The notes below the pieces were generated by a model, which saw only the letters and a list, made by a program, of their open reading frames with translations, had not been told where the DNA came from and made no database searches. Shown one piece after another: positions 5,452 through 55,414 of a stretch of 64,000 nucleotides of DNA. The stretch is taken from assembly GCF_036507355.1 (NCBI RefSeq), contig NZ_AP027877.1; one strand, written 5' to 3'. The stretch's first letter is position 1, and each line of letters begins with the position of its first letter. The position numbers were made by a program, and so were the translations under genes. The stretch is from Escherichia coli. Lineage in GTDB: Bacteria > Pseudomonadota > Gammaproteobacteria > Enterobacterales > Enterobacteriaceae.

Positions 5452-5528
<77 letters not shown>

Positions 5529-5562
5529 TCACCGTACTGCTTTTACTTCATCAAATTTTGAT

Positions 5563-5639
<77 letters not shown>

Positions 5640-5672
5640 TCACCGTACTGCTTTACTTCATCAAATTTTAAT

Positions 5673-5749
<77 letters not shown>

Positions 5750-7090: not shown

Positions 7091-7270
7091 AGGGTGAGGG
7101 ATAACCTCACATCCTGATTATTGACTAAGTGCGCGTTGTTCATGCCGGATGCGGCGTGAACGCCTTATCCAGCCTACAAATCATGCAAATCCAAAATATT
7201 GCAGGAGTTATGTAGGCCTGATAAGCGTAGCGCATCAGGCATTTATGCGTTTAGGGTGAGGGATAACCTC
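7091..7270. repeat. BIME-like cluster: two REP palindromes bracketed by an 18-bp direct repeat
   Basis: AGGGTGAGGGATAACCTC at 7091-7108 and 7253-7270; REP-like units GCCGGATGCGGCGTGAACGCCTTATCCAGCCTAC and GTAGGCCTGATAAGCGTAGCGCATCAGGC between them. Confidence 0.6.
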
Positions 7271-15776: not shown

Positions 15777-17552
15777 TTAACGCTTGTACAACGGACCGTA
15801 GTTCTGGCAAGCGCGGTAATCCTGGCCTTCAATATCCATGCCGTGCGCAGCCCAGGCAGAAGGACGATACACTTTGGTCTCTTCAACGTTGTGCATACAT
15901 ACCGGGATACGCAGCATGGAGGCGAGAGTGATAAAGTCTGCGCCAACGTGGCCGATGGTCAGAACCCCATGGTTAGCGCCCCAGTTCTCCATTACCGAAT
16001 ACACATCCGTAAACGGCCCTTTACCGGTGAGGCGCGGTGCAAACCAGGTGGTTGGCCAGGTTGAGTTGGTGCGTTTGTTGAGGATGTCATGCACATCCTT
16101 CGGCAATTCCACGCTCCAGCCTTCCGCGATTTGCAGTACCGGTCCCAGGCCTTTGATGATGTTGACACGAGTCATGGTGAACGGGACGCCGCCTTCGGTA
16201 AGGAAGCGGGAAGAGTAACCGCCGCCACGGAAGTATTCGTGGATCGCCGGGCACCATTCGGTAGCGGCGAGGCAAGCGTCAGCCTCTTGCTGAGAGATTT
16301 CCCAGTGTGGCTTCATCGTCGGGTTACCTTCGCTGTCGCGTTGTTTACAGGAACCGTCCAGCGCAGCAGAACCTGAGTTGATCAAATGGATGATGCCGTG
16401 TTCTGCCAGTCCATCGAGTTTATGCCCCGTTACACGCTCAATTGCTTCTGGTGACCAGTAGGTACGCACATCGGCAAATACCTGAGCGGTGCCGGTGAGC
16501 TGGTGACCCATTAGCATTGCCACGCCGTTAAGACTGTCGTTTTCGGTCGCCACGACAAAGGGTTCGCGCACGCCATTCCAGTCAAATGAACTGTTAAGGA
16601 TCGCTTCGGCGGTGTCGCCATTGGGATATTGATCGGTCCAGTGGCGTTGCCCCTGGAAGCCCGCAGCGATAGCGTTGTAGCCAAGTGATTCTTCCACGCG
16701 ACCAATATCGGCCAGTTTGCTGTTGCCTTGCATCATGTCGCGGATACACATCGCCATCAGTAAACTTTCGCGCAGAACTGCGCGGTTTTGCTCGGCATTG
16801 CGTTGATACTGTTTGTTATTTTCATCTTCGCCATAGCGGAAGTTTTTATCAGCCCAGGCCAGCGCCATTTCCAGTTCGGCTTCGTCGTAAATCTTCTGAT
16901 CGATACGGCGACGAAGTTCGGTCATATCCACCGCCTGGACTTTCATTCCCAGCCAGGATTCAAAGAAGTTGTGATCAACAATAGATCCGGCGATACCCAT
17001 CGAAACGCCGCCCAGCGACAGATAGCTTTTACCTTTCATGCTGGCGACGGCCAAACCGGCGCGGGCAAAGCGCAGCAGTTTTTCTTCAACATCGGCAGGA
17101 ATCGATGTGTCATCGGCATCCTGAACGTCATGACCGTAAATGGAGAATGCCGGGATGCCTTTCTGGCTGTGAGCTGCCAGAGCCGCTGCCAGGTAAACAG
17201 CGCCGGGACGTTCAGTGCCGTTAAAGCCCCAAATGGCTTTCGGGCGGGTTGGATCCATGTCGATGGTTTCACTGCCATAGCACCAGCAAGGCGTTACCGT
17301 AATGGTGAGGCCTACATTCTGGCTGCTGAATTTTTCTTCGCAAGCAGCGGCTTCAGCCATACCCGCGATACAGGTATCGGAAATGACACACTCGACGGCA
17401 GCTCCGCAGGCATGGCGCAGTTTCTCGGTCAGCAGTGTGGCCGTGGCTTTCGCCATATTCATTGTTTGTTCTTCAAGCGACTCACGAACACCCATGCGAC
17501 GACCGTCAATAACCGGGCGGATACCAATTTTCGGTAACGTATTAATTTTCAT
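15777..17552 (-). CDS. fucI: L-fucose isomerase
   Basis: 591-aa FucI-family ORF; N-terminus [14 protein letters not shown]. Confidence 0.9.
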
Positions 17553-17634
17553 CAGGATTCCTCATCTCGCTTTATTGGCGCTCTGCTAAGGCGGAGAAAG
17601 GAAACCACCGAAGCAGTAGTATTGGTCATTATTT

Positions 17635-17650
17635 GCTAACTCGAGTTAGC
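17635..17650. promoter_or_regulatory. Perfect 16-bp palindrome GCTAACTCGAGTTAGC (candidate operator), copy 1
   Basis: Exact self-complementary 16-mer centred on CG in the fucI / ABC-transporter divergent intergenic region. Confidence 0.5.
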
Positions 17651-17694
17651 TTAGGTTCGTAGGCTTTTTATGCACAACTTTTTTGTTGTTGAAA

Positions 17695-17710
17695 TGTGAG
17701 GGGCTTCACG
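17695..17710. promoter_or_regulatory. CRP-like site TGTGA-N6-TCACG
   Basis: TGTGAggggctTCACG, 9 of 10 matches to the CRP core consensus, lying between the two palindromes. Confidence 0.4.
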
Positions 17711-17873
17711 AGAAGTGGTTAAAATACGATCTCTGTCAAATTATTATTTAGCGGGACAAAAATAAATTTTACGTATAATCATATGTTTATTAGATTTTAA
17801 TGGTTATGCATCACAGTTTTAACTCAAATGATTTGGCTAATTTGTATACCTAAAATAGCTTTAAAAGGCGATC

Positions 17874-17889
17874 GCTAACTCGAGTTAGC
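17874..17889. promoter_or_regulatory. Perfect 16-bp palindrome GCTAACTCGAGTTAGC (candidate operator), copy 2
   Basis: Identical to the copy at 17635-17650; centre-to-centre spacing 239 bp. Confidence 0.5.
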
Positions 17890-18021
17890 AAAATGCGAAG
17901 AATAGATTGATGCGATGAATATTTATTCAAAGGTTATTCGTATCACAGTGGAGATGGCTTTAGTAGCGACGTTTATGCCGTACTTCACATTTTCAGTTTC
18001 TGATTATTGAGGAAAGCTGCA

Positions 18022-19521
18022 ATGTCCGAAACATTTTTGCAAATGAAGCATATCACCAAACGCTTTCCTGGAGTGTTGGCGCTTAATGACGTGCAATTTT
18101 CCCTACGCCGGGGCGAGGTTCATGCATTATTAGGTGAAAATGGTGCAGGAAAATCTACCTTAATGAAAATTTTGTCGGGGGTTTATCAACCTGATGAAGG
18201 CGAAATAATTTTTGAAGATAAACCAGTCTCATTTTCTGATCCGTTAAGTGCGCAAAACGTAGGTATTACTATTATTCACCAGGAATTTAATTTATTTCCC
18301 GAGCTTACAGTAGAGGAAAATATTTTTATCGGCAGGGAGTTTTGTAAAAAAAATCGCTGGCGTCTGGATGAGAAACAGCAACGCCAGGCGACGATCGAAA
18401 TTTTGCAAAAATTAAATTTGGCGATCAAACCAGATACTCTGGTTGCCGACCTTACGGTAGCTCAACAGCAGATGGTTGAAATTGCCAAGGCCATTTCGGT
18501 TAACGCCAGGATTCTCATTATGGATGAACCTACTGCGGCGTTAACAGAAACTGAAATTGAAAGCTTATTTCGCGTCACCCGCTTATTGAAAGAGCAGGGG
18601 ACCGGCATTGTGTATATATCCCACCGTCTGGAAGAGTTGGCGCTAATTGCCGACCGCGCGACTGTAATGCGTGATGGTCAGTACATCAGTACGGTGGATT
18701 ATGAGTGCGTAAAAATCAGCGATCTGATTGCCATGATGGTTGGTCGCGATTTAGGGAATATCTATCCCCGCCGCGAGGCCATACAGCAGCGGATGCCGGT
18801 TCTGGAGGTCAACGGACTGACGCGCAAAGGCGTACTCAACGATATTAATTTTACGCTTTATCGTGGCGAGATCCTCGGCTTTGCCGGACTGATGGGGGCA
18901 GGTCGTACTGAACTTGCGCGTGCGATTTTTGGTGCGGACTCCATTGACAGCGGAACGCTAAAGTTAAATGGTAAGGAAACCGTTATTAAAGATATTTCGG
19001 ATGCTATTCAGCAGGGAATTAGTTACCTGACGGAAGACCGAAAAAAAGAAGGGTTGGCACTGAATTTATCTGTTGAACGAAATATTATGTTAGGAAATTA
19101 CCCTGAGTATTCCGATCGTTTTGGGAATGTCGATTCGCGTCGTTGCCAACAAACCAGTGAGGAACAGGTAAAAGCGTTAAGGATTAAAACGCCAAATCTT
19201 GAACAGGCTGCATTAAATCTAAGTGGAGGAAATCAGCAGAAAATTATAATTGCACGTTGGGTGTGTAAAGATACTGATATTTTAATCTTCGATGAACCCA
19301 CTCGCGGCATTGATGTTGGCGCCAAACTGGAAATCTATGAGTTAATGAATCGCCTGGTGGCAAAAGGGAAATCAATCATCATGATCTCCTCTGAATTGCC
19401 GGAGGTGTTAGGAATGTGCGACCGTATTTTAGTGATGCGCAGTGGTCGAATTACTGGCGAACTTAGCGCAAATGAAGCGACACAAGAAAAAATCATGCAA
19501 TACGCGACGTTAGAGGATTAA
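18022..19521 (+). CDS. Sugar ABC transporter ATP-binding protein, two fused ABC domains (CUT2 family, RbsA/XylG-like)
   Basis: 499-aa product from ATG 18022 (GAGGA RBS); Walker A GENGAGKST, second-domain signature LSGGNQQK and degenerate second P-loop GLMGAGRTE; about 42% GC. Confidence 0.85.
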   Translation: MSETFLQMKHITKRFPGVLALNDVQFSLRRGEVHALLGENGAGKSTLMKILSGVYQPDEGEIIFEDKPVSFSDPLSAQNVGITIIHQEFNLFPELTVEENIFIGREFCKKNRWRLDEKQQRQATIEILQKLNLAIKPDTLVADLTVAQQQMVEIAKAISVNARILIMDEPTAALTETEIESLFRVTRLLKEQGTGIVYISHRLEELALIADRATVMRDGQYISTVDYECVKISDLIAMMVGRDLGNIYPRREAIQQRMPVLEVNGLTRKGVLNDINFTLYRGEILGFAGLMGAGRTELARAIFGADSIDSGTLKLNGKETVIKDISDAIQQGISYLTEDRKKEGLALNLSVERNIMLGNYPEYSDRFGNVDSRRCQQTSEEQVKALRIKTPNLEQAALNLSGGNQQKIIIARWVCKDTDILIFDEPTRGIDVGAKLEIYELMNRLVAKGKSIIMISSELPEVLGMCDRILVMRSGRITGELSANEATQEKIMQYATLED

Positions 19522-19524
19522 ATT

Positions 19525-20508
19525 ATGACTATCTCTGTAACCTCTCCAGACAGCAATAATAAGAAAATAAAGATAAATAAAGAACTTTTGATGCGCCTTG
19601 CGCCTCTTTTTAGCTTAATTATATTAGCGCTGTTTTTTAGTTTCAGCTCTCCCTTTTTCTTTAATACCGAAAATATCATGACGATTGCTCTGCAAACGTC
19701 GGTTATCGGCATTATGGCCATTGGGGTAACTTTCGTCATTATTACCGCGGGCATCGATCTTTCATTGGGTTCCGTGGTGGCTTTTTCTGGTGTCGCCGTG
19801 GGGATTTGCGCCACACTGGGCCTGCCGCTGCCAGTGTGTATTATTGCCGGTGTTTTAGCCGGTGGAATGTGCGGCTATGTGAATGGTTTGTTGGTCACTA
19901 AAATGACTATTCCACCGTTTATCGCTACCTTGGGCCTGATGATGTCCGTCAGAGGTATCAATATGGTGATGACCGACGGGCGCGCCATCTATTTTGCCGA
20001 TTACCCGATGTTCAAAACGCTCGCTCAGGGACGCTTGTTTGATGTGCTACCTTATCCTGTTTTCTACCTGGTCATTGTGGCGCTTGTCGGCGCTTACATC
20101 CTGAAGAAAACGGTTATTGGTCGCTATGTCTATGCCGTAGGCAGTAATGAAGTTGCTGCTCATCTTTCTGGTATTAAAGTTCAGCGCGTGAAAATTTTCG
20201 TCTATGCCTTCTGTGGTTTATTAACCGGGATTGCGGGTGTCATTCTCGCTTCTCGTCTCAACTCCGGACAACCGACGGTAGGTGTGGGTTATGAGCTGGA
20301 AGCTATTGCTGCGGTAGTGATCGGCGGAACCAGCTTAATGGGCGGTATTGGCACTATTGGCGGCACAATCATTGGCGCTTTCATTATGAGTGTACTGAAA
20401 AATGGCCTCAATTTAATGGGGGTCTCTCAGTTCTGGCAAATGGTCGCGATGGGCGTAGTTGTGGTCGCTGCCGTTTACCTCGATACATTACGCAAAAAGA
20501 TTCGTTGA
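19525..20508 (+). CDS. Sugar ABC transporter permease (RbsC/XylH-like)
   Basis: 327-aa polytopic membrane ORF starting 4 nt after the ATPase stop with GAGGA RBS. Confidence 0.85.
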   Translation: MTISVTSPDSNNKKIKINKELLMRLAPLFSLIILALFFSFSSPFFFNTENIMTIALQTSVIGIMAIGVTFVIITAGIDLSLGSVVAFSGVAVGICATLGLPLPVCIIAGVLAGGMCGYVNGLLVTKMTIPPFIATLGLMMSVRGINMVMTDGRAIYFADYPMFKTLAQGRLFDVLPYPVFYLVIVALVGAYILKKTVIGRYVYAVGSNEVAAHLSGIKVQRVKIFVYAFCGLLTGIAGVILASRLNSGQPTVGVGYELEAIAAVVIGGTSLMGGIGTIGGTIIGAFIMSVLKNGLNLMGVSQFWQMVAMGVVVVAAVYLDTLRKKIR

Positions 20509-20581
20509 CTTAGGCTCCCTGTTTTATCGGGAAACAACTGCCCTGACGTTAAGGGTGATTCACTCAGAACGGAGTACAACA

Positions 20582-21532
20582 ATGAAAACCAGGCATTTTA
20601 TCTATGCGTTATCTCTGCTGGCTTGCGTAAGTTCCAGCGCACTGGCGAAGGATTTAAATCTTCCGGTTGTTAGTAAAGGTTTCCAACATGAATTCTGGCA
20701 AACCGTAAAAATGGGGACTGAAGCTGCGGCTAAAGAGTTGGGGGATAAAACCAGCTATGTTGGCCCGGCTGATGAAACGCAAATAGCCGAGCAAATTCAG
20801 TTAGTCGAAAATGCGATGGCGCAGAAACCGAATGGCTTGCTTCTGGCAGCCCTCGACGCGAATGCGCTCGCCCCACTGGTAGAAACGGCAAATTCACGCG
20901 GTATCAAAGTGGTGACCTTTGATTCAGGCATCAATTCAGACATTCCGGTGAGTTTTGTCGCCACCAATAACCGTAAAGCAGGTGCTCAGGCAGCTGATGC
21001 CTTAGCCGCGCAGGTAAATAATAAAGGGAAAGTAGGGATTATCGCGCACGTTGCAGGAACATCTTCCGCTATTGAACGCTCGGAAGGCTTCATGGAGCGT
21101 ATGAAAGAAAAATATCCTGACATTAAAGTTTTACCCGTTCAGTACAGCGATGGTGACCCGCAAAAAGCGATGGATAAAACTATCGATATGATTCAGGCCA
21201 ATCCCGATCTTGCTGGGATCTATGGCACCAATGAAGGTTCAACGCTCGGGGTGGCGAATGCCATTGATAGCCAGAATCTGAAAGGTAAGGTGAAGGTCAT
21301 TGGTTTTGATAGTACGGAAGCGATTATTAACTTCCTGAAGAACGGCGTCATTCAGGGCTTTGTTGTTCAGGATGCATACCAGATTGGCTATCAAGGGATC
21401 AAAACGTTGAACGCGGCCCTTTCGGGACAAGCCGTTGAAAAAGAGATCGATATTCCCGTGAAATTTGTTAATGCCGAGAATATTAACACGCCAGAAATCG
21501 ACAAACTCCTGCACCCATTCGGTAAGAAATAA
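20582..21532 (+). CDS. Periplasmic sugar-binding protein (RbsB-like)
   Basis: 316-aa product from ATG 20582 (GGAG RBS); Sec signal MKTRHFIYALSLLACVSSSALA; the six-frame ORF starting at 20459 is an over-extension. Confidence 0.85.
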   Translation: MKTRHFIYALSLLACVSSSALAKDLNLPVVSKGFQHEFWQTVKMGTEAAAKELGDKTSYVGPADETQIAEQIQLVENAMAQKPNGLLLAALDANALAPLVETANSRGIKVVTFDSGINSDIPVSFVATNNRKAGAQAADALAAQVNNKGKVGIIAHVAGTSSAIERSEGFMERMKEKYPDIKVLPVQYSDGDPQKAMDKTIDMIQANPDLAGIYGTNEGSTLGVANAIDSQNLKGKVKVIGFDSTEAIINFLKNGVIQGFVVQDAYQIGYQGIKTLNAALSGQAVEKEIDIPVKFVNAENINTPEIDKLLHPFGKK

Positions 21533-21539
21533 AAAAATT

Positions 21540-21559
21540 GGGGATGAATTTTCATCCCC
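21540..21559. other. Perfect 8-bp-stem hairpin between the binding-protein gene and the kinase gene
   Basis: GGGGATGA-attt-TCATCCCC preceded by an A7 run; no T-tract on the plus side, so it is not a canonical plus-strand terminator. Confidence 0.4.
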
Positions 21560-21585
21560 GTTATCTCCAGCGTCAGGGAGGCTTT

Positions 21586-23166
21586 ATGCACAACGGTTAT
21601 TTTCTCGGTGTCGATGTCGGATCGGCCAGTGTCAGGGCAGGCGTTTACAGTGCCAGTGGCCACAGGCTGGCATTCGCTACTGCGCCCGTCTCCCAGTTTC
21701 GCCCTGGCGGCGAGCGTGTTGAACAGTCTTCGGCGGAGATCTGGCAACAAGTTTGTAAAACGGTGAAAGAGGCGACAGCTTTGGCAGGCATCCCTGGTTC
21801 CGCAATTCGCTCGCTAGGTTTTGACGCTACTTGCTCGCTGGTTGTTCTTGATGAACAAGGCCAGGGTTTAGCTGTTTCGCCCGGTGGATCTGCGAATCAC
21901 GACATTATTATGTGGATGGATCATCGTGCAACTGTCGAGACGGCGCAGATTAACGCGACGAAGGATCCTGCATTGCGCTACGTTGGCGGCGAAGTGAGCG
22001 TCGAGATGGAGTTACCAAAGTTACGTTGGTTGAAGACGCATCTACCGCAAACCTGGCAGGCCGCTCATCGCTTTTTCGATCTGGCGGATTTTCTGGTCTG
22101 GAAAGCAACAGGGCGAGACGTCGCGGGATTATGCACGCTAACGTGTAAATGGAATTATCTGGCTCATGAGCAACGCTTTAGCCATAGCTTACTGGAATCG
22201 ATAGACCTGATCGATATGCTTGAAAGAATTCCTGCCGACATTCTTCCGCCTGGCGCTGCCGTGGGAACATTAACCGCCACAGCTGCTGAAGAGTTAGGAT
22301 TAACGACTAATGTTATCGTGGCCAGTGGCTTGATTGATGCCCATGCCGGTGGCGTGGCGCTGGCTGGCGCGCACCCATCAGGAACGCTGGCATTGATAAG
22401 CGGAACGTCGAACTGCCATATGCTGTGTAGTGAAAAAGAGATATTCACCCCTGGCGTCTGGGGGCCATACTGGTCGGCCATGTTGCCAAATTACTGGCTA
22501 ACCGAAGGCGGGCAAAGCGCCGCAGGGGCGCTGGTGGAGTGGACGCTTCAGGAGTCAGGGGCAAGCGCAAATCTTTTTCACAAGGCGCAGCAACGCGGAT
22601 GTCATCCGATTCAACTGATTAATGAATGGGTAGCCGCCCTGGAAGCTAACGAGTCAGAACCCACACGAAATTTACATGTGCTTGCCGATCATCACGGCAA
22701 CCGTTCGCCACGAGCGCGGCCCGATGCCAGAGGCAGTGTTTATGGCTTAACACTGGAGCGTGGTGAAAGTCAGCTCGCGCGACTTTATCTTGCGACTTTA
22801 CAGGCAATAGCCTTTGGCACCAGACATATTATTGAAACTCTCAGGGAAAATGGGCATACCATTACCCGATTAACATTATGTGGTGGTGCAACGCACAACC
22901 CTTTATGGCTACGCGAATATGCAGACGTGACAGGCTGCGATATCCACCTGATGCAAGAAGAAGATGCCGTTACATTGGGTGCAGCAATTAGCGGCGCTGT
23001 TGCCAGCGGAGCATGGGGGGATTTTACATCTGCGTGTAAAGCAATGGTTGAAGCCGGAGAGGTTATTCAGGTAAATCCACAACGCCGTGAATTTTTAGAG
23101 CGTAAATACCGGGTTTACCTGACGCTTTGGGAGCAACAACAGGCAGTTAACCAACTGATGCAATAA
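21586..23166 (+). CDS. FGGY-family carbohydrate kinase, pentulose (ribulokinase-like) type
   Basis: 526-aa product from ATG 21586 (AGGGAGG RBS); FGGY N- and C-terminal domains (GVDVGSASVR, IIMWMDHRA); distinct from fucK. Confidence 0.8.
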   Translation: MHNGYFLGVDVGSASVRAGVYSASGHRLAFATAPVSQFRPGGERVEQSSAEIWQQVCKTVKEATALAGIPGSAIRSLGFDATCSLVVLDEQGQGLAVSPGGSANHDIIMWMDHRATVETAQINATKDPALRYVGGEVSVEMELPKLRWLKTHLPQTWQAAHRFFDLADFLVWKATGRDVAGLCTLTCKWNYLAHEQRFSHSLLESIDLIDMLERIPADILPPGAAVGTLTATAAEELGLTTNVIVASGLIDAHAGGVALAGAHPSGTLALISGTSNCHMLCSEKEIFTPGVWGPYWSAMLPNYWLTEGGQSAAGALVEWTLQESGASANLFHKAQQRGCHPIQLINEWVAALEANESEPTRNLHVLADHHGNRSPRARPDARGSVYGLTLERGESQLARLYLATLQAIAFGTRHIIETLRENGHTITRLTLCGGATHNPLWLREYADVTGCDIHLMQEEDAVTLGAAISGAVASGAWGDFTSACKAMVEAGEVIQVNPQRREFLERKYRVYLTLWEQQQAVNQLMQ

Positions 23167-23230
23167 GACAAAAGTTGAAAATACTTTTATGATTGTGATT
23201 TGACGTCTGGATGTTAACTGGGAAATACCT

Positions 23231-24229
23231 ATGGCTAAAACAGTAGAGCAGATAGCCAGCGACCTGAATTTATCGGTTACGACCGTGCGACTGGTGCTAA
23301 ATGGAAAAGCGGAACAATATCGAATCAGCGTCAAAACCCAAACGCGTATCAATGAATATGTTGAACACTATGGTTATATCATTAATCATTCCGCTCGCAG
23401 CCTTAAACTTAACAAAACTGATACATTAGGGTTGATTGTTCCCAACATATCCAACGTCTTTTTTGCTACGCTGGCAGAAAAACTTGAACAACGCTGCCGA
23501 CGTTCCGGATATCAACTTACGATCAGTTGTACTTATGATGATGTCGACTATGAAAATAAATTGACGAAAGCATTTATCGCACGAAATGTAGATGGTCTTT
23601 TTATTGTTCCTTCGACGCTGGAGAATCAGCAGCATCATTTACGCAAAATTCGTAAACCAATGGTTTTACTCGACCGTGATTTTAAATATACCGATAATGC
23701 ATTGGTAGAGAGTAATAATATTTCTGGCGGAGAAAAGTTGACACAAAATATTCTTGAGGCCGGGCAGACTCCAGTATGGTTTTTGCTGGGGGATGCCGGT
23801 TTGCCGAGTATCAGCGATCGTCTGACAGGTTATTTGAATGCGTTGGAAAAAAAAGGGATTACCCATCGCGATTGGGTGCGAGAAGGCCCGGTAAATACTC
23901 CGGAAGGCGGCTATGTCATTATGGAAAAACTCATTGAAGAGCAGGGATGTCCGCAGGCATTTATCGCCTCGTCTTTACCTGTGCTTGAAGGCGCTGTCCG
24001 CGCGATTCGCGACCGTCTTGGCGCTGTACCGCCAGAAATCAATATTGGCACTTTCGATGAACATCCCATGCTGGGATTTCTCGCCAACAATGTCTGGTCA
24101 ATGCAGCAGGATGAAAATGCCTGGGCAGAAAAAGCGTTCGAAATGATGTTAAGCGCGATCGAAGAAAGACCAGTCAAAAAAACAGTCAAAGTAGAAATGA
24201 AATTAATTAAGCGCATAAGAAAAAAATAA
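23231..24229 (+). CDS. LacI-family transcriptional regulator
   Basis: 332-aa ORF with N-terminal LacI HTH (VEQIASDLNLSVTTVRLVLNG) and periplasmic-binding-like effector domain; about 43% GC. Confidence 0.85.
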   Translation: MAKTVEQIASDLNLSVTTVRLVLNGKAEQYRISVKTQTRINEYVEHYGYIINHSARSLKLNKTDTLGLIVPNISNVFFATLAEKLEQRCRRSGYQLTISCTYDDVDYENKLTKAFIARNVDGLFIVPSTLENQQHHLRKIRKPMVLLDRDFKYTDNALVESNNISGGEKLTQNILEAGQTPVWFLLGDAGLPSISDRLTGYLNALEKKGITHRDWVREGPVNTPEGGYVIMEKLIEEQGCPQAFIASSLPVLEGAVRAIRDRLGAVPPEINIGTFDEHPMLGFLANNVWSMQQDENAWAEKAFEMMLSAIEERPVKKTVKVEMKLIKRIRKK

Positions 24230-24362
24230 TAATCGCCAAAAGATAATCAGGCTATTGAACAATGATATTCAGTGGCCACCCCTTACTAAAAATAACCCCG
24301 TCTTCATTTGCGGTGCTGTTTTACGCAACAAGGCGAGCTGGAACTGTATCTGGAGAATAGAG

Positions 24363-25010
24363 ATGGAAAGAACACGTTTATCCCGTGAAATAATTGAAAC
24401 CTGTCTGGAAATGACGCGCCTTGGGTTAAATCAGGGGACTGCGGGGAATGTCAGCACACGTTTTGAAAACGGCATGTTGATTACTCCAAGCGGTATTCCT
24501 TATGAAAGAATGACGGAGAATATGATTGTCTATGTTGATGGCAACGGCAAATACGAAGAAGGTAAGATTCCTTCCAGCGAATGGCGTTTCCATATGGCGG
24601 CCTATCAAAGCAGACCGGATGCCAACGCGGTTGTTCACAATCATGCCGTTCATTGCACAGCAGTTTCCATTCTTAACCGACCGATCCCCGCTATTCACTA
24701 CATGATTGCGGCGGCTGGCGGTAATTCTATTCCTTGCGCGCCTTATGCGACCTTTGGAACACGCGAACTTTCTGAACATGTTGCGCTGGCTCTCAAAAAT
24801 CGTAAGGCAACTTTGTTACAACATCATGGGCTTATCGCTTGTGAGGTGAATCTGGAAAAAGCGTTATGGCTGGCGCATGAAGTTGAAGTGCTGGCGCAAC
24901 TTTACCTGACGACCCTGGCGATTACGGACCCGGTGCCAGTGCTGAGCGATGAAGAAATTGCCGTAGTGCTGGAGAAATTCAAAACCTATGGGTTACGGAT
25001 TGAAGAGTAA
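24363..25010 (+). CDS. fucA: L-fuculose-1-phosphate aldolase (class II); N-terminal third diverged from the K-12 sequence
   Basis: 215-aa product from ATG 24363 (GGAGA RBS); residues from about 70 onward match K-12 FucA as I recall it, the first ~70 differ at about 18 positions. Confidence 0.85.
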   Translation: MERTRLSREIIETCLEMTRLGLNQGTAGNVSTRFENGMLITPSGIPYERMTENMIVYVDGNGKYEEGKIPSSEWRFHMAAYQSRPDANAVVHNHAVHCTAVSILNRPIPAIHYMIAAAGGNSIPCAPYATFGTRELSEHVALALKNRKATLLQHHGLIACEVNLEKALWLAHEVEVLAQLYLTTLAITDPVPVLSDEEIAVVLEKFKTYGLRIEE

Positions 25011-42995: not shown

Positions 42996-43051
42996 GGAGT
43001 TCCGTTATGGGACAATTAAGGTCACACTGTTAAATTGAGAAAGTCTCGCCA

Positions 43052-44353
43052 ATGGCGCAATTCTACTCTGCAAAACGACGCACGACGACGCGTCAGATCA
43101 TAACCGTTTCAGTCAACGACCTCGACTCTTTTGGTCAGGGCGTGGCGCGACATAACGGCAAAACGCTATTTATCCCCGGATTATTGCCGCAGGAAAACGC
43201 GGAAGTTACTGTTACTGAAGATAAAAAACAGTATGCCCGCGCTAAAGTCGTACGCCGGTTAAGCGATAGCCCGGAACGCGAAACGCCACGCTGTCCTCAT
43301 TTTGGCGTATGCGGCGGCTGTCAGCAACAACACGCCAGCGTGGATTTACAGCAGCGAAGCAAAAGTGCGGCACTCGCCCGATTAATGAAACACGAAGTCT
43401 CTGAAGTGATCGCCGATGTTCCCTGGGGCTATCGCCGTCGCGCGCGTTTAAGTCTGAATTACTTACCGAAAACACAGCAACTTCAGATGGGGTTTCGCAA
43501 AGCGGGCTCCAGTGACATTGTCGACGTTAAACAATGCCCCATTTTAGTGCCCCAACTTGAAGCATTGCTGCCCAAAGTCAGGGCATGCCTGGGCAGCTTA
43601 CAAGCTATGCGCCATCTTGGTCATGTTGAACTGGTACAGGCAACCAGCGGCACGCTGATGATTTTGCGCCATACCGCACCGCTAAGTTCGGCAGATCGCG
43701 AAAAACTGGAACACTTTTCGCATTCTGAAGGCCTGGATCTGTATCTTGCCCCCGATAGTGAGATACTCGAAACCGTCTCTGGTGAGATGCCCTGGTATGA
43801 CTCAAACGGGTTGCGCTTAACTTTTAGCCCGCGCGATTTTATTCAGGTCAATGCGGGTGTGAACCAAAAAATGGTAGCGCGTGCGTTGGAATGGCTGGAT
43901 GTGCAACCTGAAGATCGCGTACTGGATCTGTTCTGTGGTATGGGCAACTTTACACTGCCATTGGCGACACAAGCAGCCAGTGTCGTGGGTGTAGAAGGTG
44001 TTCCGGCGCTGGTGGAAAAAGGCCAGCAGAATGCGCGTCTTAATGGCTTACAGAATGTGACGTTTTATCATGAAAATCTTGAAGAAGATGTCACAAAGCA
44101 GCCGTGGGCGAAAAACGGCTTCGATAAAGTGTTGCTGGACCCCGCGCGAGCAGGTGCCGCAGGTGTTATGCAGCAAATTATAAAACTGGAACCTATTCGT
44201 ATAGTTTATGTATCCTGTAACCCTGCAACGCTGGCTCGGGATAGCGAAGCGTTATTAAAAGCAGGATATACCATTGCGCGACTGGCGATGCTGGATATGT
44301 TCCCACACACGGGACATCTGGAATCGATGGTACTTTTCTCGCGCGTTAAATAG
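43052..44353 (+). CDS. rlmD: 23S rRNA m5U1939 methyltransferase RlmD (RumA)
   Basis: 433-aa ORF with TRAM domain, Fe-S cysteines ([10 protein letters not shown]) and SAM-MTase domain. Confidence 0.9.
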
Positions 44354-44400
44354 TTGCGATTTGCCGATTTCGGCAGGTCTGGTCCCTAAAGGAGAGGACG

Positions 44401-46635
44401 ATGGTTGCGGTAAGAAGTGCACATATCAATAAGGCTGGTGAATTTGATCCGGAAAAATGGATCGCAAGTCTGGGTATTACCAGCCAGAAGTCGTGTGAGT
44501 GCTTAGCCGAAACCTGGGCGTATTGTCTGCAACAGACGCAGGGGCATCCGGATGCCAGTCTGTTATTGTGGCGTGGTGTTGAGATGGTGGAGATCCTCTC
44601 GACATTAAGTATGGACATTGACACGCTGCGGGCGGCGCTGTTGTTCCCTCTGGCTGATGCCAACGTGGTCAGCGAAGATGTGCTGCGTGAGAGCGTCGGT
44701 AAGTCGGTCGTTAACCTTATTCACGGCGTGCGTGATATGGCGGCGATCCGCCAGCTGAAAGCGACGCACACTGATTCTGTTTCCTCCGAACAGGTCGATA
44801 ACGTTCGCCGGATGTTATTGGCGATGGTCGATGATTTTCGCTGCGTGGTCATCAAACTGGCGGAGCGTATTGCTCATCTGCGTGAAGTAAAAGATGCGCC
44901 GGAAGATGAACGCGTACTGGCGGCAAAAGAGTGCACTAATATCTACGCGCCGCTGGCGAACCGTCTTGGGATTGGGCAACTGAAATGGGAGCTGGAAGAT
45001 TACTGCTTCCGTTATCTCCACCCGACCGAATATAAACGCATCGCAAAACTGTTGCATGAACGCCGTCTCGACCGCGAACACTATATCGAAGAGTTTGTCG
45101 GCCATCTGCGCGCTGAGATGAAAGCTGAAGGCGTTAAAGCTGAAGTGTATGGTCGTCCGAAACACATCTACAGCATCTGGCGCAAAATGCAGAAAAAGAA
45201 TCTCGCCTTCGATGAGCTGTTTGATGTGCGTGCGGTACGTATTGTCGCCGAGCGTTTACAGGATTGTTATGCCGCACTGGGGATAGTGCACACTCACTAT
45301 CGCCACCTGCCGGATGAGTTTGACGATTATGTCGCTAACCCGAAACCAAACGGTTATCAGTCTATTCATACCGTGGTTCTGGGGCCGGGTGGAAAAACCG
45401 TTGAGATCCAAATCCGCACCAAACAGATGCATGAAGATGCAGAGTTGGGTGTTGCTGCGCACTGGAAATATAAAGAGGGCGCGGCTGCTGGCGGCGCACG
45501 TTCGGGACATGAAGACCGGATTGCCTGGCTGCGTAAACTGATTGCGTGGCAGGAAGAGATGGCTGATTCCGGCGAAATGCTCGACGAAGTACGTAGTCAG
45601 GTGTTTGACGACCGGGTGTATGTCTTTACGCCGAAAGGTGATGTCGTTGATTTACCTGCGGGATCAACGCCGCTGGACTTCGCTTACCACATCCACAGTG
45701 ATGTCGGACACCGCTGTATCGGGGCAAAAATTGGCGGGCGCATTGTGCCGTTCACCTACCAGCTGCAAATGGGCGACCAGATTGAAATTATCACCCAGAA
45801 ACAGCCGAACCCCAGCCGTGACTGGTTAAACCCAAACCTCGGTTACGTCACAACCAGCCGTGGGCGTTCGAAAATTCACGCCTGGTTCCGTAAACAGGAC
45901 CGTGACAAAAACATTCTGGCTGGGCGGCAAATCCTTGACGACGAGCTGGAACATCTGGGGATCAGCCTGAAAGAAGCAGAAAAACATCTGCTGCCGCGTT
46001 ACAACTTCAATGATGTCGACGAGTTGCTGGCGGCGATTGGTGGAGGGGATATCCGTCTCAATCAGATGGTGAACTTCCTGCAATCGCAATTTAATAAGCC
46101 GAGTGCCGAAGAGCAGGACGCCGCCGCGCTGAAGCAACTTCAGCAAAAAAGCTACACGCCGCAAAACCGCAGTAAAGATAACGGTCGTGTGGTGGTTGAA
46201 GGTGTCGGTAACCTGATGCACCACATCGCGCGCTGCTGCCAGCCGATTCCTGGAGATGAGATTGTCGGCTTCATTACCCAAGGACGCGGTATTTCAGTAC
46301 ACCGCGCCGATTGCGAACAACTGGCGGAACTGCGCTCCCATGCGCCAGAACGCATTGTTGACGCGGTATGGGGCGAGAGCTACTCCGCCGGATATTCGCT
46401 GGTGGTCCGCGTGGTGGCTAATGATCGTAGTGGGTTGTTACGTGATATCACGACCATTCTCGCCAATGAGAAAGTGAACGTGCTTGGCGTTGCCAGCCGT
46501 AGCGACACCAAACAGCAACTGGCGACCATCGACATGACCATTGAGATTTACAACCTGCAGGTGCTGGGTCGCGTGCTGGGTAAACTCAACCAGGTGCCGG
46601 ATGTTATCGACGCGCGTCGGTTGCACGGCAGTTAG
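44401..46635 (+). CDS. relA: GTP pyrophosphokinase / (p)ppGpp synthetase I
   Basis: 744-aa RelA/SpoT-family ORF. Confidence 0.95.
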   Translation: MVAVRSAHINKAGEFDPEKWIASLGITSQKSCECLAETWAYCLQQTQGHPDASLLLWRGVEMVEILSTLSMDIDTLRAALLFPLADANVVSEDVLRESVGKSVVNLIHGVRDMAAIRQLKATHTDSVSSEQVDNVRRMLLAMVDDFRCVVIKLAERIAHLREVKDAPEDERVLAAKECTNIYAPLANRLGIGQLKWELEDYCFRYLHPTEYKRIAKLLHERRLDREHYIEEFVGHLRAEMKAEGVKAEVYGRPKHIYSIWRKMQKKNLAFDELFDVRAVRIVAERLQDCYAALGIVHTHYRHLPDEFDDYVANPKPNGYQSIHTVVLGPGGKTVEIQIRTKQMHEDAELGVAAHWKYKEGAAAGGARSGHEDRIAWLRKLIAWQEEMADSGEMLDEVRSQVFDDRVYVFTPKGDVVDLPAGSTPLDFAYHIHSDVGHRCIGAKIGGRIVPFTYQLQMGDQIEIITQKQPNPSRDWLNPNLGYVTTSRGRSKIHAWFRKQDRDKNILAGRQILDDELEHLGISLKEAEKHLLPRYNFNDVDELLAAIGGGDIRLNQMVNFLQSQFNKPSAEEQDAAALKQLQQKSYTPQNRSKDNGRVVVEGVGNLMHHIARCCQPIPGDEIVGFITQGRGISVHRADCEQLAELRSHAPERIVDAVWGESYSAGYSLVVRVVANDRSGLLRDITTILANEKVNVLGVASRSDTKQQLATIDMTIEIYNLQVLGRVLGKLNQVPDVIDARRLHGS

Positions 46636-46649
46636 GCAGAAATTTGCTC

Positions 46650-46700
46650 GTATCTACAATGTAGATTGATATATACTGTATCTACATATGATAGCGGTTT
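46650..46700 (+). promoter_or_regulatory. mazEF promoter region with alternating palindromes
   Basis: TATCTACAATGTAGATTGATATATACTGTATCTACATATGATAGC immediately upstream of mazE. Confidence 0.6.
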
Positions 46701-46712
46701 GAGGAAAGGGTT

Positions 46713-46961
46713 ATGATCCACAGTAGCGTAAAGCGTTGGGGAAATTCACCGGCGGTGCGGATCCCGGCTACGTTAATGCAGGCGCTCAATCTGAATATTG
46801 ATGATGAAGTGAAGATTGACCTGGTGGATGGCAAATTAATTATTGAGCCAGTGCGTAAAGAGCCCGTATTTACGCTTGCTGAACTGGTCAACGACATCAC
46901 GCCGGAAAACCTCCACGAGAATATCGACTGGGGAGAGCCGAAAGATAAGGAAGTCTGGTAA
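46713..46961 (+). CDS. mazE: Antitoxin MazE
   Basis: 82-aa AbrB/SpoVT-fold antitoxin; start [19 protein letters not shown]. Confidence 0.95.
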
Positions 46962-47296
46962 TGGTAAGCCGATACGTACCCGATATGGGCGATCTGATTT
47001 GGGTTGATTTTGACCCGACAAAAGGTAGCGAGCAAGCCGGACATCGTCCGGCTGTTGTCCTGAGTCCGTTCATGTACAACAACAAAACAGGTATGTGTCT
47101 GTGTGTTCCTTGTACAACGCAATCAAAAGGATATCCGTTCGAAGTTGTTTTATCCGGTCAGGAACGTGATGGCGTAGCGTTAGCTGATCAGGTAAAAAGT
47201 ATCGCCTGGCGGGCAAGAGGAGCAACGAAGAAAGGAACGGTTGCCCCAGAGGAATTACAACTCATTAAAGCCAAAATTAACGTACTGATTGGGTAG
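46961..47296 (+). CDS. mazF: mRNA interferase toxin MazF
   Basis: 111-aa PemK/MazF-family toxin; ATG overlaps mazE stop. Confidence 0.95.
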   Translation: MVSRYVPDMGDLIWVDFDPTKGSEQAGHRPAVVLSPFMYNNKTGMCLCVPCTTQSKGYPFEVVLSGQERDGVALADQVKSIAWRARGATKKGTVAPEELQLIKAKINVLIG

Positions 47297-47367
47297 GTGT
47301 TACTAACTCACTTCTATTCTGGTCACAGGTTTCCACCTGACAGACCCGCAATTTTCAGGACATTCTA

Positions 47368-48159
47368 ATGAATCAAATCGACCGTTTGCTCACTATTATG
47401 CAGCGCCTGCGCGACCCGGAAAACGGCTGCCCGTGGGATAAAGAGCAGACATTTTCTTCTATTGCGCCTTACACCCTTGAAGAAACCTACGAGGTGCTGG
47501 ACGCTATTGCCCGCGAAGACTTTGACGATCTGCGCGGTGAACTCGGCGATCTGCTGTTCCAGGTGGTGTTTTACGCACAAATGGCCCAGGAAGAAGGGCG
47601 CTTTGATTTTAATGATATTTGCGCCGCGATTAGCGATAAATTAGAACGCCGTCATCCACATGTTTTTGCTGACGGTTCTGCCGGAAACAGCCGCGAAGTT
47701 CTCGCCCGTTGGGAGGAGATCAAAACCGAAGAGCGCGCGCAGAAAGCGCAGCATTCGGCGCTGGACGATATTCCTCGTAGTTTACCCGCCTTAATGCGTG
47801 CGCAAAAAATCCAGAAACGTTGCGCCAACGTTGGCTTCGATTGGACGACGCTTGGTCCGGTAGTCGATAAAGTCTACGAAGAGATCGACGAGGTGATGTA
47901 CGAAGCGCGGCAGGCTGTTGTCGACCAGGCTAAACTGGAGGAGGAAATGGGGGACCTGCTGTTTGCCACGGTCAATCTGGCTCGTCATTTAGGGACAAAA
48001 GCGGAAATCGCATTGCAAAAAGCGAACGAAAAATTCGAGCGTCGTTTTCGCGAAGTGGAGCGTATTGTTGCCGCGCGTGGACTGGAAATGACAGGTGTTG
48101 ACCTCGAAACAATGGAAGAAGTCTGGCAACAGGTAAAACGGCAGGAAATTGATCTCTAA
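47368..48159 (+). CDS. mazG: Nucleoside triphosphate pyrophosphohydrolase MazG
   Basis: 263-aa tandem MazG-domain ORF. Confidence 0.9.
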   Translation: MNQIDRLLTIMQRLRDPENGCPWDKEQTFSSIAPYTLEETYEVLDAIAREDFDDLRGELGDLLFQVVFYAQMAQEEGRFDFNDICAAISDKLERRHPHVFADGSAGNSREVLARWEEIKTEERAQKAQHSALDDIPRSLPALMRAQKIQKRCANVGFDWTTLGPVVDKVYEEIDEVMYEARQAVVDQAKLEEEMGDLLFATVNLARHLGTKAEIALQKANEKFERRFREVERIVAARGLEMTGVDLETMEEVWQQVKRQEIDL

Positions 48160-48371
48160 GGGAATTACGCGGTCAAGCGCCATTTGTGTCATTTTTTAAA
48201 TGACAAGCGCTTGATTTGCGTCAAAAACATTTACCCCAAAGGGGCTATTTTCTCACTCCTGATTTCAATAGTGCGCTGGCGAAGAGGAGGGATAATGAAA
48301 GTTTGTGGCACAGGTCATGTTCGGGTATACTGCTTTCCCGTCCTGGTTATTCCATCGTCTTTTCAACCTAA

Positions 48372-50024
<1,653 letters not shown>

Positions 50025-50096
50025 GTAAAAAAGTTAGAACGGCAACGCGTACCCTGGGTACGCGTTGTTTGTCTGGAGTTTCAGTTTAACTAGTGA

Positions 50097-51465: not shown

Positions 51466-51828
51466 TCACATTTTGAGTTCAGTAAGCAGAGCGATAACAT
51501 TAATAAATGTTATTCCCACCAGGATAAGTATCCGAACAATTTTTCTGCTATTCCTTACATTGCTGACAAAATCATTATGAGAAATATTGGATGAATATTT
51601 TCGTTGATGGACTTTATAATCCCAAAGAAGATCATTTGCCTCAGGTATTGGGTTAATCAGACTGTAGATGCAAAAGTATACAAACGTATCTAAAGCAAGC
51701 AGTGATGTTATCAGTTGAAATAATTCATCGCCCTGGAAGGCTTTATTAAGCCAAATCATTCCAGCAGCACCGAATAAGCCAAATACAAATTTACTTAATC
51801 GCGGATGATTCGCTAAAATCTTACTCAT
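51466..51828 (-). CDS. Small hypothetical membrane protein (120 aa, 2-3 predicted TM helices), last gene of the LemA/TPM operon
   Basis: ORF with AGGGAAGG RBS 36 nt downstream of the TPM gene stop; very AT-rich (about 35% GC). Confidence 0.5.
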   Translation of the reverse strand: MSKILANHPRLSKFVFGLFGAAGMIWLNKAFQGDELFQLITSLLALDTFVYFCIYSLINPIPEANDLLWDYKVHQRKYSSNISHNDFVSNVRNSRKIVRILILVGITFINVIALLTELKM

Positions 51829-51863
51829 ATTTTCTTACCTTCCCTGTAATCTGTTTTTAAGTC

Positions 51864-52766
51864 TTACCATCTTCCTGACGCGCCGCCACCGCCGGATGAA
51901 CCGCCGCCACCGCTGAAATTGTCATTGTCGAAAGAGGATGAAGAGGAAGAAGACGATGACGAATGCCAGGAGGCCGAGTTGCTTCTTTCGTAGCGTGACG
52001 GTCGGTTTGCACTACGCATTGAATCACGCACCTTTCTGCCGAAAGGTGTGAAAGCGATAGCTACGACCAGGAATGGAGTGGCGAAACATAATAATGTGGC
52101 AAGAATTCCCCAGCTCCCGCTATATCCAGCGATGGGAAGTACAAAGGCCAGTATTATGGCAGCAAAGCAAATCACTCCCAGCGTTTTGATATATCCTCTG
52201 GCAGAAATAAACGTCAGTACTATCGCCCAGACTAACAGAGCCCACCAACCGCTAAAGGGTAAAGGATGATCGGGCGATGTATTATTGACTAAATCATTTC
52301 CTGATAGTCGGGTTTCAATATCACCAATACCTTGTTGCAAGCCGACAGCAAGGTCGCCCTTTTTAAACGCTGGAATAATACTGTTGCGTATAATTTGCCC
52401 GGACTGCGCATCCGTCAGAATACCCTCAAGTCCGTAGCCAATTTCAATATGTACTGTATGATCTTGCTAGGCAACTACCAGTAAAATACCGTCATCAAGA
52501 TTCTTATGACCGGGCTGCCAACGCTCGAATACCCGCGTTGCGTACTGCTCGATGGTTTCGTCGCCTGTTGTATCAACCACTAACACGACCAACTGTGCGT
52601 GTTTTTTTTGTGTCAGGGCTTTAATCTGGTTGGTCAGGGTGTTTACTTCGCTGTTTGTTAATGTGCCGGTTAAGTCATTCACATACTTGGGTGATTCAGG
52701 TACTGGAATTTGTGTGGCAAACACAGATGAACAGAAGAAAGCCGTAAGGAAGATAAAATTTCGCAT
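51864..52766 (-). pseudogene. ygcG: TPM-domain (YgcG-like) protein interrupted by an in-frame TAG at 52467-52469
   Basis: N-terminal ORF (signal peptide MRNFIFLTAFFCSSVFA plus start of TPM domain) and C-terminal ORF (TM segments plus Gly/Ser-rich tail) are in the same frame, separated only by the amber codon; sequence reads ...LLVVA-TAG-QDHTVHIEIGYGLEG... Confidence 0.75.
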
Positions 52767-52779
52767 AGAACTTCCCCGC

Positions 52780-53400
52780 TTAATGAGCATTAGCATTCTG
52801 GCTAAAATCTATTGTTGGGGCTTTACTTACTGCGGCGACATCATCCGGCAAATAATTTTTCTTTGGTGTGTAATCCATGACCTTTGCGGTTAATACAGCG
52901 GGGAATTTGCGGATAGTGACATTATATTGTTCAATGGCTTTAATATATCTTCCTCGCGCAACGGCAATTCTATTCTCACTTCCTTCGAGCTGTACCATTA
53001 AGTTTTGATAGAGCTCTTGAGCCTTTAACTCAGGGTAACGCTCACTAATTATCGTTAACTGACCGAGAGTGCGAGTCACCTGCGCCTGGGCCTGTTGCCA
53101 GGCTTGTAATTTTTGTGCATCTCCGGGAGCTTGCTGAAGATCGCTGCTGGCGCGATTAGCCTGGCTACGAGCCAATGTTACGGCTTCCAAAACGTCTTTT
53201 TCATGGTTGGAATAACCTTTAATACTGGCGACAAGATTAGGAATAAGATCGGCGCGACGTTGATATTGATTTAATACCTCAGACCAGGAGGCGTTAACCT
53301 GCTCATCATAGGTTTGAATATCGTTATATCCACAGCCTGATAAATTGAAAATAAATATAATTAAGATGAATATCCTGAGCATGTTTAAATCCTTTTTCAT
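52780..53400 (-). CDS. LemA-family protein (probable lipoprotein)
   Basis: 206-aa LemA-family ORF with N-terminal signal and lipobox LSGC; stop lies 13 nt upstream of the TPM gene start. Confidence 0.8.
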   Translation of the reverse strand: MKKDLNMLRIFILIIFIFNLSGCGYNDIQTYDEQVNASWSEVLNQYQRRADLIPNLVASIKGYSNHEKDVLEAVTLARSQANRASSDLQQAPGDAQKLQAWQQAQAQVTRTLGQLTIISERYPELKAQELYQNLMVQLEGSENRIAVARGRYIKAIEQYNVTIRKFPAVLTAKVMDYTPKKNYLPDDVAAVSKAPTIDFSQNANAH

Positions 53401-54419: not shown

Positions 54420-54565
54420 TATAGAATTATTTTAAATATTTGCCTTTTTAATCAATGGGTTAAGTGCTCTTTAACATAATGGATGTGTTGTTTGTGTGAT
54501 ACTGTAAAGTTGGTAGATTGTGACTGGCTTAAAAAATCATTAATTAATAATAGGTTATGTTTAGA
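54420..54565 (+). promoter_or_regulatory. AT-rich CRISPR leader of array 1
   Basis: AT-rich tract ending ...GGTTATGTTTAGA immediately 5' of the first repeat. Confidence 0.6.
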
Positions 54566-54777
54566 GAGTTCCCCGCGCCAGCGGGGATAAACCGGAGAGA
54601 GTCCAGTATCAATCCCGCGATCCGCAGAGTTCCCCGCGCCAGCGGGGATAAACCGCCGTTGCGGATCTTGAGTAGTGCCACGTCACCGAGTTCCCCGCGC
54701 CAGCGGGGATAAACCGGGTACAAAAGAGGCCCCATTCTGGCAGGGCTCGAGTTCCCCGCGCCAGCGGGGATAAACCA
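54566..54777 (+). CRISPR. Type I-E CRISPR array: 4 repeats of 29 bp, 3 spacers of 32 bp
   Basis: Repeats GAGTTCCCCGCGCCAGCGGGGATAAACCG at 54566, 54627, 54688 and 54749 (last ends in A); spacers GAGAGAGTCCAGTATCAATCCCGCGATCCGCA, CCGTTGCGGATCTTGAGTAGTGCCACGTCACC, GGTACAAAAGAGGCCCCATTCTGGCAGGGCTC. Confidence 0.95.
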
Positions 54778-55241
54778 CCATATAACCCGTTATCTCTTTC
54801 TCAAGTTTTTATATTAGCAGTACTTGTAATAAGCAACATATCCACGTAACACCTCATGTTCAAAATAGTTCCCCATGCCAGATAAGTTCACAATTATCGA
54901 TACAAAAAATTAAATTTAATCAAAGTGTTATTTGTATAATTCTTAAGCCGTTAAGAAATTTTAATCTATTATTTTTTTAATATTAATTAATGCCTGTTAA
55001 TTTTTTCTTTAGTATAACAGTGTATTTTTTAAGCTTGTTATTCATTGATTAAGTAATAAATCTGGAAATTTGTCTTTGTTTTGAGGCTAATGAGTGGTTT
55101 TACATAACCGCCTCTATACGCTGTTGATGAATAGTTCTTATGAATAAAGATATCCAGTTCATACTTTAAGTGAAAATTGATAAAGTGCGATTCGTATTGT
55201 CTTTTATTCTAAAGACATCGAGTGTAGTTAATATTCCTTGT

Positions 55242-55368
55242 AAAAACAGGGATAAACCGAACTAGTTAAAGTTTTTATTATGTTCCCTGCATCAGCGGGG
55301 ATAAACCGGACTTGTTATCATTTTTTAAGTTGTCGAACTTATGTTCCCCGCGCCAGCGGGGATAACCA
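55242..55368 (+). CRISPR. Degenerate type I-E CRISPR array remnant: 2 decayed repeats plus a partial repeat, 1 full-length spacer
   Basis: Partial repeat ...CAGGGATAAACCG ending 55259; ATGTTCCCTGCATCAGCGGGGATAAACCG (55280-55308); 32-bp spacer GACTTGTTATCATTTTTTAAGTTGTCGAACTT; ATGTTCCCCGCGCCAGCGGGGATAACCA (55341-55368). Confidence 0.8.
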
Positions 55369-55414
55369 TTCAGGTATGTTCAGGCCGGGCAGTTTCCCGC
55401 CCGGTTTTCCTCAC

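Follow-up and report, generated by a model that had tools for sequence, protein, structure and literature searches.

Does the gene pair downstream of relA in this stretch of Escherichia coli DNA represent the intact, reference form of the chromosomal mazEF module, or does it depart from that form in its proteins, its regulatory region or its genomic position? The stretch analysed here, referred to below as the window, is 64 kb (64,000 nucleotides) in length. The original prediction held that an intact mazE-mazF pair with an alternating-palindrome promoter occupies positions 46650-47296, and that the pair is a known type II toxin-antitoxin system rather than a new one. It made no mention of the antisense RNA aMEF (annotated in K-12), of the presence/absence polymorphism of the locus or of its contested physiological role.

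Genomic context of the mazEF locus

The gene order in this part of the window (barA, rlmD, relA, mazE, mazF, mazG, pyrG, eno) matches that of E. coli K-12 MG1655, and positions 43000-50054 share 98.1% DNA identity with the K-12 sequence. The genes of the immediate neighborhood, together with the putative ribosome-binding sequences of the pair, are the following:

44401..46635, + strand: relA, GTP diphosphokinase, 744 aa; open reading frame, NCBIfam NF008124 at 1678 bits (cut-off 728)
46701..46705, + strand: Shine-Dalgarno-like GAGGA, 7 nt before the mazE ATG, read from the sequence
46713..46961, + strand: mazE, antitoxin, 82 aa; Pfam PF04014, NCBIfam NF007312, PDB 1mvf_D
46947-51, + strand: Shine-Dalgarno-like AAGGA preceding the mazF ATG, read from the sequence
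46961..47296, + strand: mazF, toxin, 111 aa; Pfam PF02452, NCBIfam NF007386, PDB 3nfc_A
47368..48159, + strand: mazG, nucleoside triphosphate pyrophosphohydrolase, 263 aa; Pfam PF03819 at 134.8 bits, NCBIfam TIGR00444 at 417 bits

The relA gene, whose product contains the Pfam domains HD_4, RelA_SpoT, TGS and ACT, lies directly upstream of the pair, with 77 nt between its end and the mazE ATG, and a gap of 71 nt separates mazF from mazG. A sequence scan detected no terminator-like site on the + strand in either the relA-mazE or the mazF-mazG interval, which would fit the published co-transcription of relA, mazEF and mazG: read-through transcription from relA into mazEF has been reported (PMC7167474), and mazG is co-transcribed with mazEF (PMC4803016).

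The stretch from 46600 to 47400 is 100% identical at the DNA level to that of E. coli NZ_OZ197100.1, and it is matched in 4745 of the 5426 complete E. coli genomes, each time on the chromosome, with relA, mazE, mazF and mazG as the annotated genes. The module sits between relA and mazG in the window, as it does in K-12 and in the matching RefSeq genomes listed. The K-12 MG1655 pair (b2783-b2782; chpAI-chpAK) shares with the window the flanking genes rlmD and relA on one side and mazG, pyrG and eno on the other; it encodes identical MazE and MazF proteins and has the same 1-nt stop/start overlap and the same cab operator. The comparison with the reference annotation, suggested as a check of the original prediction, gives the same picture, as relA, mazE, mazF and mazG are annotated likewise in K-12 MG1655. 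The claim that the module lies at its "usual position" after relA holds for the window, for K-12 and for the matching genomes, but this position is not universally occupied, since about 19% of the complete E. coli genomes are without mazEF (see below). The locus is almost certainly mazEF (chpA), the type II toxin-antitoxin module of the E. coli chromosome. It is intact, and its proteins and operator cannot be told apart from those of K-12.

The antitoxin and toxin proteins

The TAA stop codon of mazE and the ATG of mazF overlap by a single base (TAATG), and the two genes form a tight same-strand bicistronic unit in which the antitoxin comes first. Both open reading frames are present at the predicted place and are full-length, and their products are 100% identical to solved E. 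coli chains, in agreement with the claim of an intact pair.

The MazE sequence matches the MazE_antitoxin family over residues 6-51 (Pfam PF04014, 52.9 bits, cut-off 24.7) and the NCBIfam equivalog NF007312 over its entire length (196.2 bits against a cut-off of 113, with residues 1-82 aligned to model positions 1-82), and it is identical to PDB 1mvf_D in 82/82 residues. It is a protein with a predicted N-terminal DNA-binding domain of the AbrB/MazE type, followed by an acidic C-terminal tail that would bind MazF. MazF, in turn, matches the PemK_toxin family (Pfam PF02452, 84.8 bits, cut-off 23.1) and the equivalog NF007386 (227.4 bits against a cut-off of 120, with residues 1-111 aligned to model positions 1-111), and is identical to PDB 3nfc_A in 111/111 residues (E = 1.9e-73). 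On these matches, MazF is predicted to be an ACA-specific endoribonuclease of the PemK/MazF fold. Examination of the translation, the chain being identical to the solved enzyme, shows that residues E24, R29 and T52 are all present. Arg29 and Thr52 are residues which, from the structural literature, we take to belong to the active site. The E24A variant of MazF is inactive (PMC5888573).

The operator and promoter region

The region upstream of mazE contains the following elements:

46633..46660, + strand: sigma-70-like hexamers TAGGCA-16-TACAAT; consensus scan, 9/12 matches
46647..46697, + strand: mazEF operator "cab" with the alternating palindrome; published oligonucleotide of 51 nt, matched in 50/51 bases
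46650-46668, + strand: operator site c; oligonucleotide mapped from PMC4333400
46666-46679, + strand: operator site a; oligonucleotide mapped from PMC4333400
46671-46689, + strand: operator site b; oligonucleotide mapped from PMC4333400

The cab, c, a and b operator oligonucleotides are those of Zorzini et al. 2015 (PMC4333400). The sole mismatch with the cab oligonucleotide is its last base, at which the window and K-12 agree. Within the operator, the repeat finder identified two pairings: ATCTACA at 46652-58 with TGTAGAT at 46660-66 (7-nt arms, 1 nt between them), and ATGTAGAT at 46659-66 with ATCTACAT at 46680-87 (8-nt arms, 13 nt between them). A third heptamer arm, ATCTACA, is located at 46680-86, and a 9-nt direct repeat, GTATCTACA, occurs at 46650-58 and again at 46678-86. 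Since the central arm has two possible partners, the arm upstream of it and the arm downstream, the arrangement corresponds to the "alternating palindrome" of the mazEF promoter, which has been described previously (PMC4803016). The alternating palindrome claimed for the locus is confirmed both by the repeat arms and by the match with the published operator.

The 64-kb window contains the heptamer eight times, and three of these copies fall within 35 nt at the operator. The three-arm arrangement (X / rc(X) / X, with 7-nt arms) occurs five times in the window, such that its geometry alone is not unique. The same arrangement was found 0.27 +/- 0.48 times in 60 dinucleotide-preserving shuffles, the observed number being about 19-fold above the shuffle mean, and about 0.0003 occurrences would be expected in the 77-nt spacer. 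A chance origin of the three-arm palindrome was ruled out: its frequency is above that of the shuffles, and the exact operator match is decisive.

The -35 hexamer (TAGGCA) overlaps the relA stop codon, and the hexamer pair may correspond to P2, the stronger of the mazEF promoters. The span originally assigned to the module begins at the first base of the direct repeat GTATCTACA and ends exactly where the mazF stop codon ends. Its end point is well placed, whereas at its start the promoter-like hexamers (46633-46660) begin 17 nt further upstream.

DNA differences from K-12 and the antisense RNA aMEF

Between positions 46600 and 47400, the window differs from K-12 by nine substitutions and one insertion of 1 nt. 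No difference occurs between 46639 and 47037, and the operator and mazE are therefore identical to those of K-12 at the DNA level. The part of relA in this span contains one substitution, at 46629. Position 46638, located in the promoter-like -35 hexamer just outside the operator, is A in the window and C in K-12, a change that brings the hexamer nearer to the consensus (4/6 matches in the window vs 3/6 in K-12). In mazF there are four differences, all of them synonymous (47038, 47050, 47068 and 47239), and the mazF-mazG spacer differs by three substitutions and the 1-nt insertion. Because the codon for Thr93 is ACG rather than ACA (47239), the mazF gene of the window contains eight ACA triplets, compared to nine in K-12; two ACA sites are present in mazE of both. 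The published counts for K-12 are two such sites in mazE and nine in mazF (PMC5888573).

The K-12 RefSeq annotation includes an antisense ncRNA, ameF (aMEF, b4844), at 2911051-2911450. The coordinates were converted by subtracting the K-12 coordinate from 2958052, which places its equivalent in the window as follows:

46602..47001, - strand: position equivalent to aMEF, mapped from the K-12 annotation

The aMEF equivalent has its start within the 5' part of mazF, extends across mazE and the operator, and has its end in the last codons of relA. Rfam at gathering thresholds gave no family over 46600-47400, and aMEF is consequently placed only through homology to the K-12 annotation. In K-12, aMEF stimulates mazEF expression in an RNase III-independent manner (Van Gundy et al. 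2022, PMC8749433), and its promoter, which is weak and non-canonical, lies inside mazF (PMC8749433). The 75 bp that precede the aMEF start contain three of the four synonymous mazF differences (47038, 47050 and 47068). By our reading, none of the differences from K-12 affects a hexamer-like sequence on the minus strand, TTGCTC-17-CAAAAT. In the source strain, aMEF may be expressed as well.

The changes at 46638, the lost ACA at 47239, the three synonymous differences upstream of the aMEF start and those in the mazF-mazG spacer are the basis for a reading in which cis differences retune the module in the source strain, which would then carry, as a natural variant, an otherwise identical toxin-antitoxin pair with altered regulation. 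We regard this reading as improbable. If it were true, the consequences may include, for example, higher basal transcription or a weaker feedback by MazF self-cleavage.

Distribution and origin of the module among E. coli genomes

The distribution of the locus was assessed using a 2.2-kb query, from the end of relA to mazG, against the set of 5426 complete E. coli genomes. A single genome gave no match, and 4415 genomes (~81%) cover at least 80% of the query. In about 1010 genomes (~19%), 69% of the query is aligned, as two separate pieces, and relA is directly followed by mazG, mazEF being absent. Such presence/absence polymorphism is known: UTI89, for example, is among the strains without the module, in which relA and mazG form an undisturbed bicistronic operon (PMC7167474).

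An example of a genome without mazEF is that of E. coli strain 200164 (NZ_CM128590.1; L005:1237-1331), in which the relA-mazG spacer is 95 nt long and shows no similarity to mazEF. This spacer, which folds at -33.3 kcal/mol, contains a 12-bp hairpin (GCTGGATATGGC / GCCGTATCCAGC) and, after it, a run rich in T, and its likeness to the window returns ~45 nt before mazG. A different arrangement is found in E. coli strain SW07163 (NZ_CM129852.1; L006:3288-4354), where an IS1 transposase gene adjoins an intact mazF and neither mazE nor relA is present at this location, the opposite flank being occupied by a truncated xni; the query matches the record at one further location. The arrangement in SW07163 looks like an IS1-mediated rearrangement that split the toxin gene from its antitoxin.

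Our preferred reading of the origin of the module is that mazEF is an acquired, self-regulating cassette that was inserted into a relA-mazG operon. The GC content of mazE (48.6%) and mazF (47.3%) is lower than that of relA (53.5%) and mazG (51.8%), and relatives of mazEF with 65-70% DNA identity are found on conjugative plasmids of Klebsiella, Providencia and Proteus; the acquired-cassette reading fits this low GC content, the plasmid relatives and the genomes in which relA and mazG lack an intervening mazEF. Plasmid addiction modules have likewise been taken to suggest a mobile origin for the chromosomal cassette (PMC7232551). A search of the phage collection, distant mode included, gave no match to related DNA, which also fits an acquired cassette. 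Plasmid carriage of the full-length locus was considered and rejected, as the single match is a record of 4.8 Mb, presumably a chromosome filed as a plasmid.

Alternative identities and the state of the module

The two Pfam families of the pair, PF04014 and PF02452, are also carried by pemIK, kis-kid and chpS-chpB, and the proteins of the window give detectable matches to ChpS, ChpB and Kid; it could thus be argued that the pair is another module of the MazF/PemK type (chpS-chpB, or a plasmid pemIK or kis-kid) rather than mazEF proper. The second chromosomal module, chpS-chpB (chpBI-chpBK), has the same antitoxin-toxin order, and its toxin is also an endoribonuclease; it lies elsewhere on the chromosome, however, and the proteins of the window fall far below the relevant cut-offs (34.6 bits vs 101 for ChpS, 55.2 bits vs 129 for ChpB), whereas the MazE and MazF models are passed over their full length. 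The plasmid modules, i.e., pemIK (R100), kis-kid (R1) and the Klebsiella, Providencia and Proteus homologues, share a homologous toxin fold and the antitoxin type and serve as addiction modules, but they are plasmid-borne and unlinked to relA, and the 65-70% DNA identity of the plasmid mazEF homologues extends over less than half of the query. Kid itself (1m1f) matches with E = 7.6e-9 only, against the 1.9e-73 and complete identity recorded for E. coli MazF, and a location between relA and mazG is where mazEF is found. ChpBIK and PemIK were rejected as identities on the model and PDB scores, and the probability that the pair is anything other than mazEF proper is close to nil.

Equally, an intact-looking module may be silent or decayed in the source strain, with its expression or regulation disabled by cis changes. 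Toxin-antitoxin loci are often lost or decayed, and the mazEF-less genomes (~19%), the SW07163 genome with IS1 adjoining mazF and mazE missing at that place, and the differences from K-12 at 46638, near the operator but not within it, and in the spacer between mazF and mazG could all be read in this sense. Against it, both frames in the window are full-length with zero amino-acid changes; K-12 and the window do not differ in the operator, in the two Shine-Dalgarno-like sequences or in the stop/start overlap; and the change at 46638 shifts the -35 hexamer toward the consensus rather than away from it. A silent remnant is thus very unlikely, and we retain the reading of an intact mazEF module of the K-12 type.

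Proposed mode of action

The following scheme derives from the K-12 literature, and its steps probably act alike in the source strain, the proteins being identical to those of K-12. The mazE and mazF genes would be co-transcribed from promoters that overlap the operator, with an additional contribution from relA read-through. Dimers of MazE would then bind operator sites c, a and b through their N-terminal domain, for which KD values of ~0.5-5 uM have been determined (PMC4333400), and the MazE-MazF pair would repress its own promoter. MazF strengthens the binding of MazE to the operator near a 1:1 ratio, and a large excess of MazF abolishes it (PMC4333400). The toxin would be blocked in a complex in which two MazF dimers flank a single MazE dimer. 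In K-12, MazE is degraded by ClpAP and Lon (PMC5888573, PMC8749433), and degradation by these proteases would likewise free MazF in the source strain. The freed toxin would cut single-stranded RNA at ACA, its presumed targets being mRNAs, rRNA precursors and its own transcript (cleavage of its own mRNA by MazF has been reported; PMC5888573), and the outcome would be reduced translation and growth arrest. The antisense RNA aMEF, originating from within mazF, would raise the output of both MazE and MazF.

Physiological role of mazEF

The physiological purpose of mazEF is contested and is not settled. The roles proposed include programmed cell death, specialised ribosomes, reversible stasis and phage exclusion, and according to a 2020 review several of these proposals are in conflict or unreproduced (PMC7167474). 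The claims of cell death and of specialised ribosomes failed to reproduce in other groups, and deletion of five toxin-antitoxin systems caused no fitness defect under several stresses (PMC7167474). In a 2025 paper, a growth-promoting role was reported, and MazF at native levels was proposed to relieve transcription-replication conflicts at rRNA operons (PMC12541390).

We prefer the reading that MazF, once released, is a general and reversible inhibitor of translation. The main rival, which concerns the role of the module and leaves its identity untouched, is that mazEF serves chiefly in altruistic programmed cell death or abortive infection, with irreversible killing. A series of K-12 studies described mazEF-dependent death under many stresses together with a quorum pentapeptide, and deletion of mazEF reportedly raised the loads of P1 infection (both summarised in PMC7167474; see also PMC1626106); these cell-death results clash with the data of other laboratories (PMC7167474). 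The toxicity of MazF is, moreover, bacteriostatic and reversible, and cells that no longer form colonies are viable but non-culturable (PMC7167474, PMC5888573). PADLOC-DB v2 yielded no family at E <= 0.01 for MazE, MazF or MazG, and the pair is therefore not classed as a catalogued defence system; this lack of a PADLOC match for MazE or MazF, the lack of any phage record with related DNA, and the absence of the locus from about a fifth of the E. coli genomes all speak against this rival. Programmed cell death as the main role is accordingly judged unlikely, and reversible inhibition of translation remains the preferred reading.

Additional features of the window

Several other elements of the window were recorded. 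A 6.8-kb cluster at 17565-24383 replaces fucP and the fucA-fucP intergenic region and is flanked by fucI and fucA. It comprises an ABC transporter (ATPase ~18022-19521, permease ~19525-20508, binding protein ~20582-21532), an FGGY-family kinase (~21587-23167) and a LacI-family regulator (~23232-24230). The stretch from 17000 to 25000 is covered to at least 80% in only 381 of the 5426 complete E. coli genomes.

A short CRISPR array is located downstream of queE, at 54565-54777, and consists of four near-identical 30-nt repeats (GAGTTCCCCGCGCCAGCGGGGATAAACCG core) with a spacing of 61 nt. Three degenerate CRISPR repeats follow at 55230-55369, ~450 nt beyond the array, and related genomes have longer arrays at this place. 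The eno-queE segment at 51466-53400 (- strand) is unlike that of NZ_OZ197100.1, the closest genome overall, where a ygcG pseudogene and an IS4 element occupy this place. It is similar to the corresponding segment of strain IAI1, for which the annotation gives a hypothetical protein, a TPM-domain gene that is truncated and a gene of the LemA family. The known RNA genes of the window include:

5452-5749, - strand: three tandem tRNA-Met (CAT) genes
7177-7219, + strand: ES036/CssrF, 46.5 bits
10235-10440, - strand: GcvB, 199 bits
33536-33895, + strand: CsrB, 384 bits

Implications

The original description of the locus as a well-described type II module rather than a novelty is upheld, its proteins and operator being identical to those of K-12: the mazEF locus in the window is already known, and there is nothing new in the gene pair. 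It ranks among the most studied toxin-antitoxin systems and is present here in its reference form, and it thus carries little weight for discovery. The open question about mazEF is that of its physiological role, which the sequence of another identical copy cannot address. The module serves instead as an anchor, by which the window is confirmed as E. coli chromosome and placed in the barA-rlmD-relA-mazEFG-pyrG-eno region.
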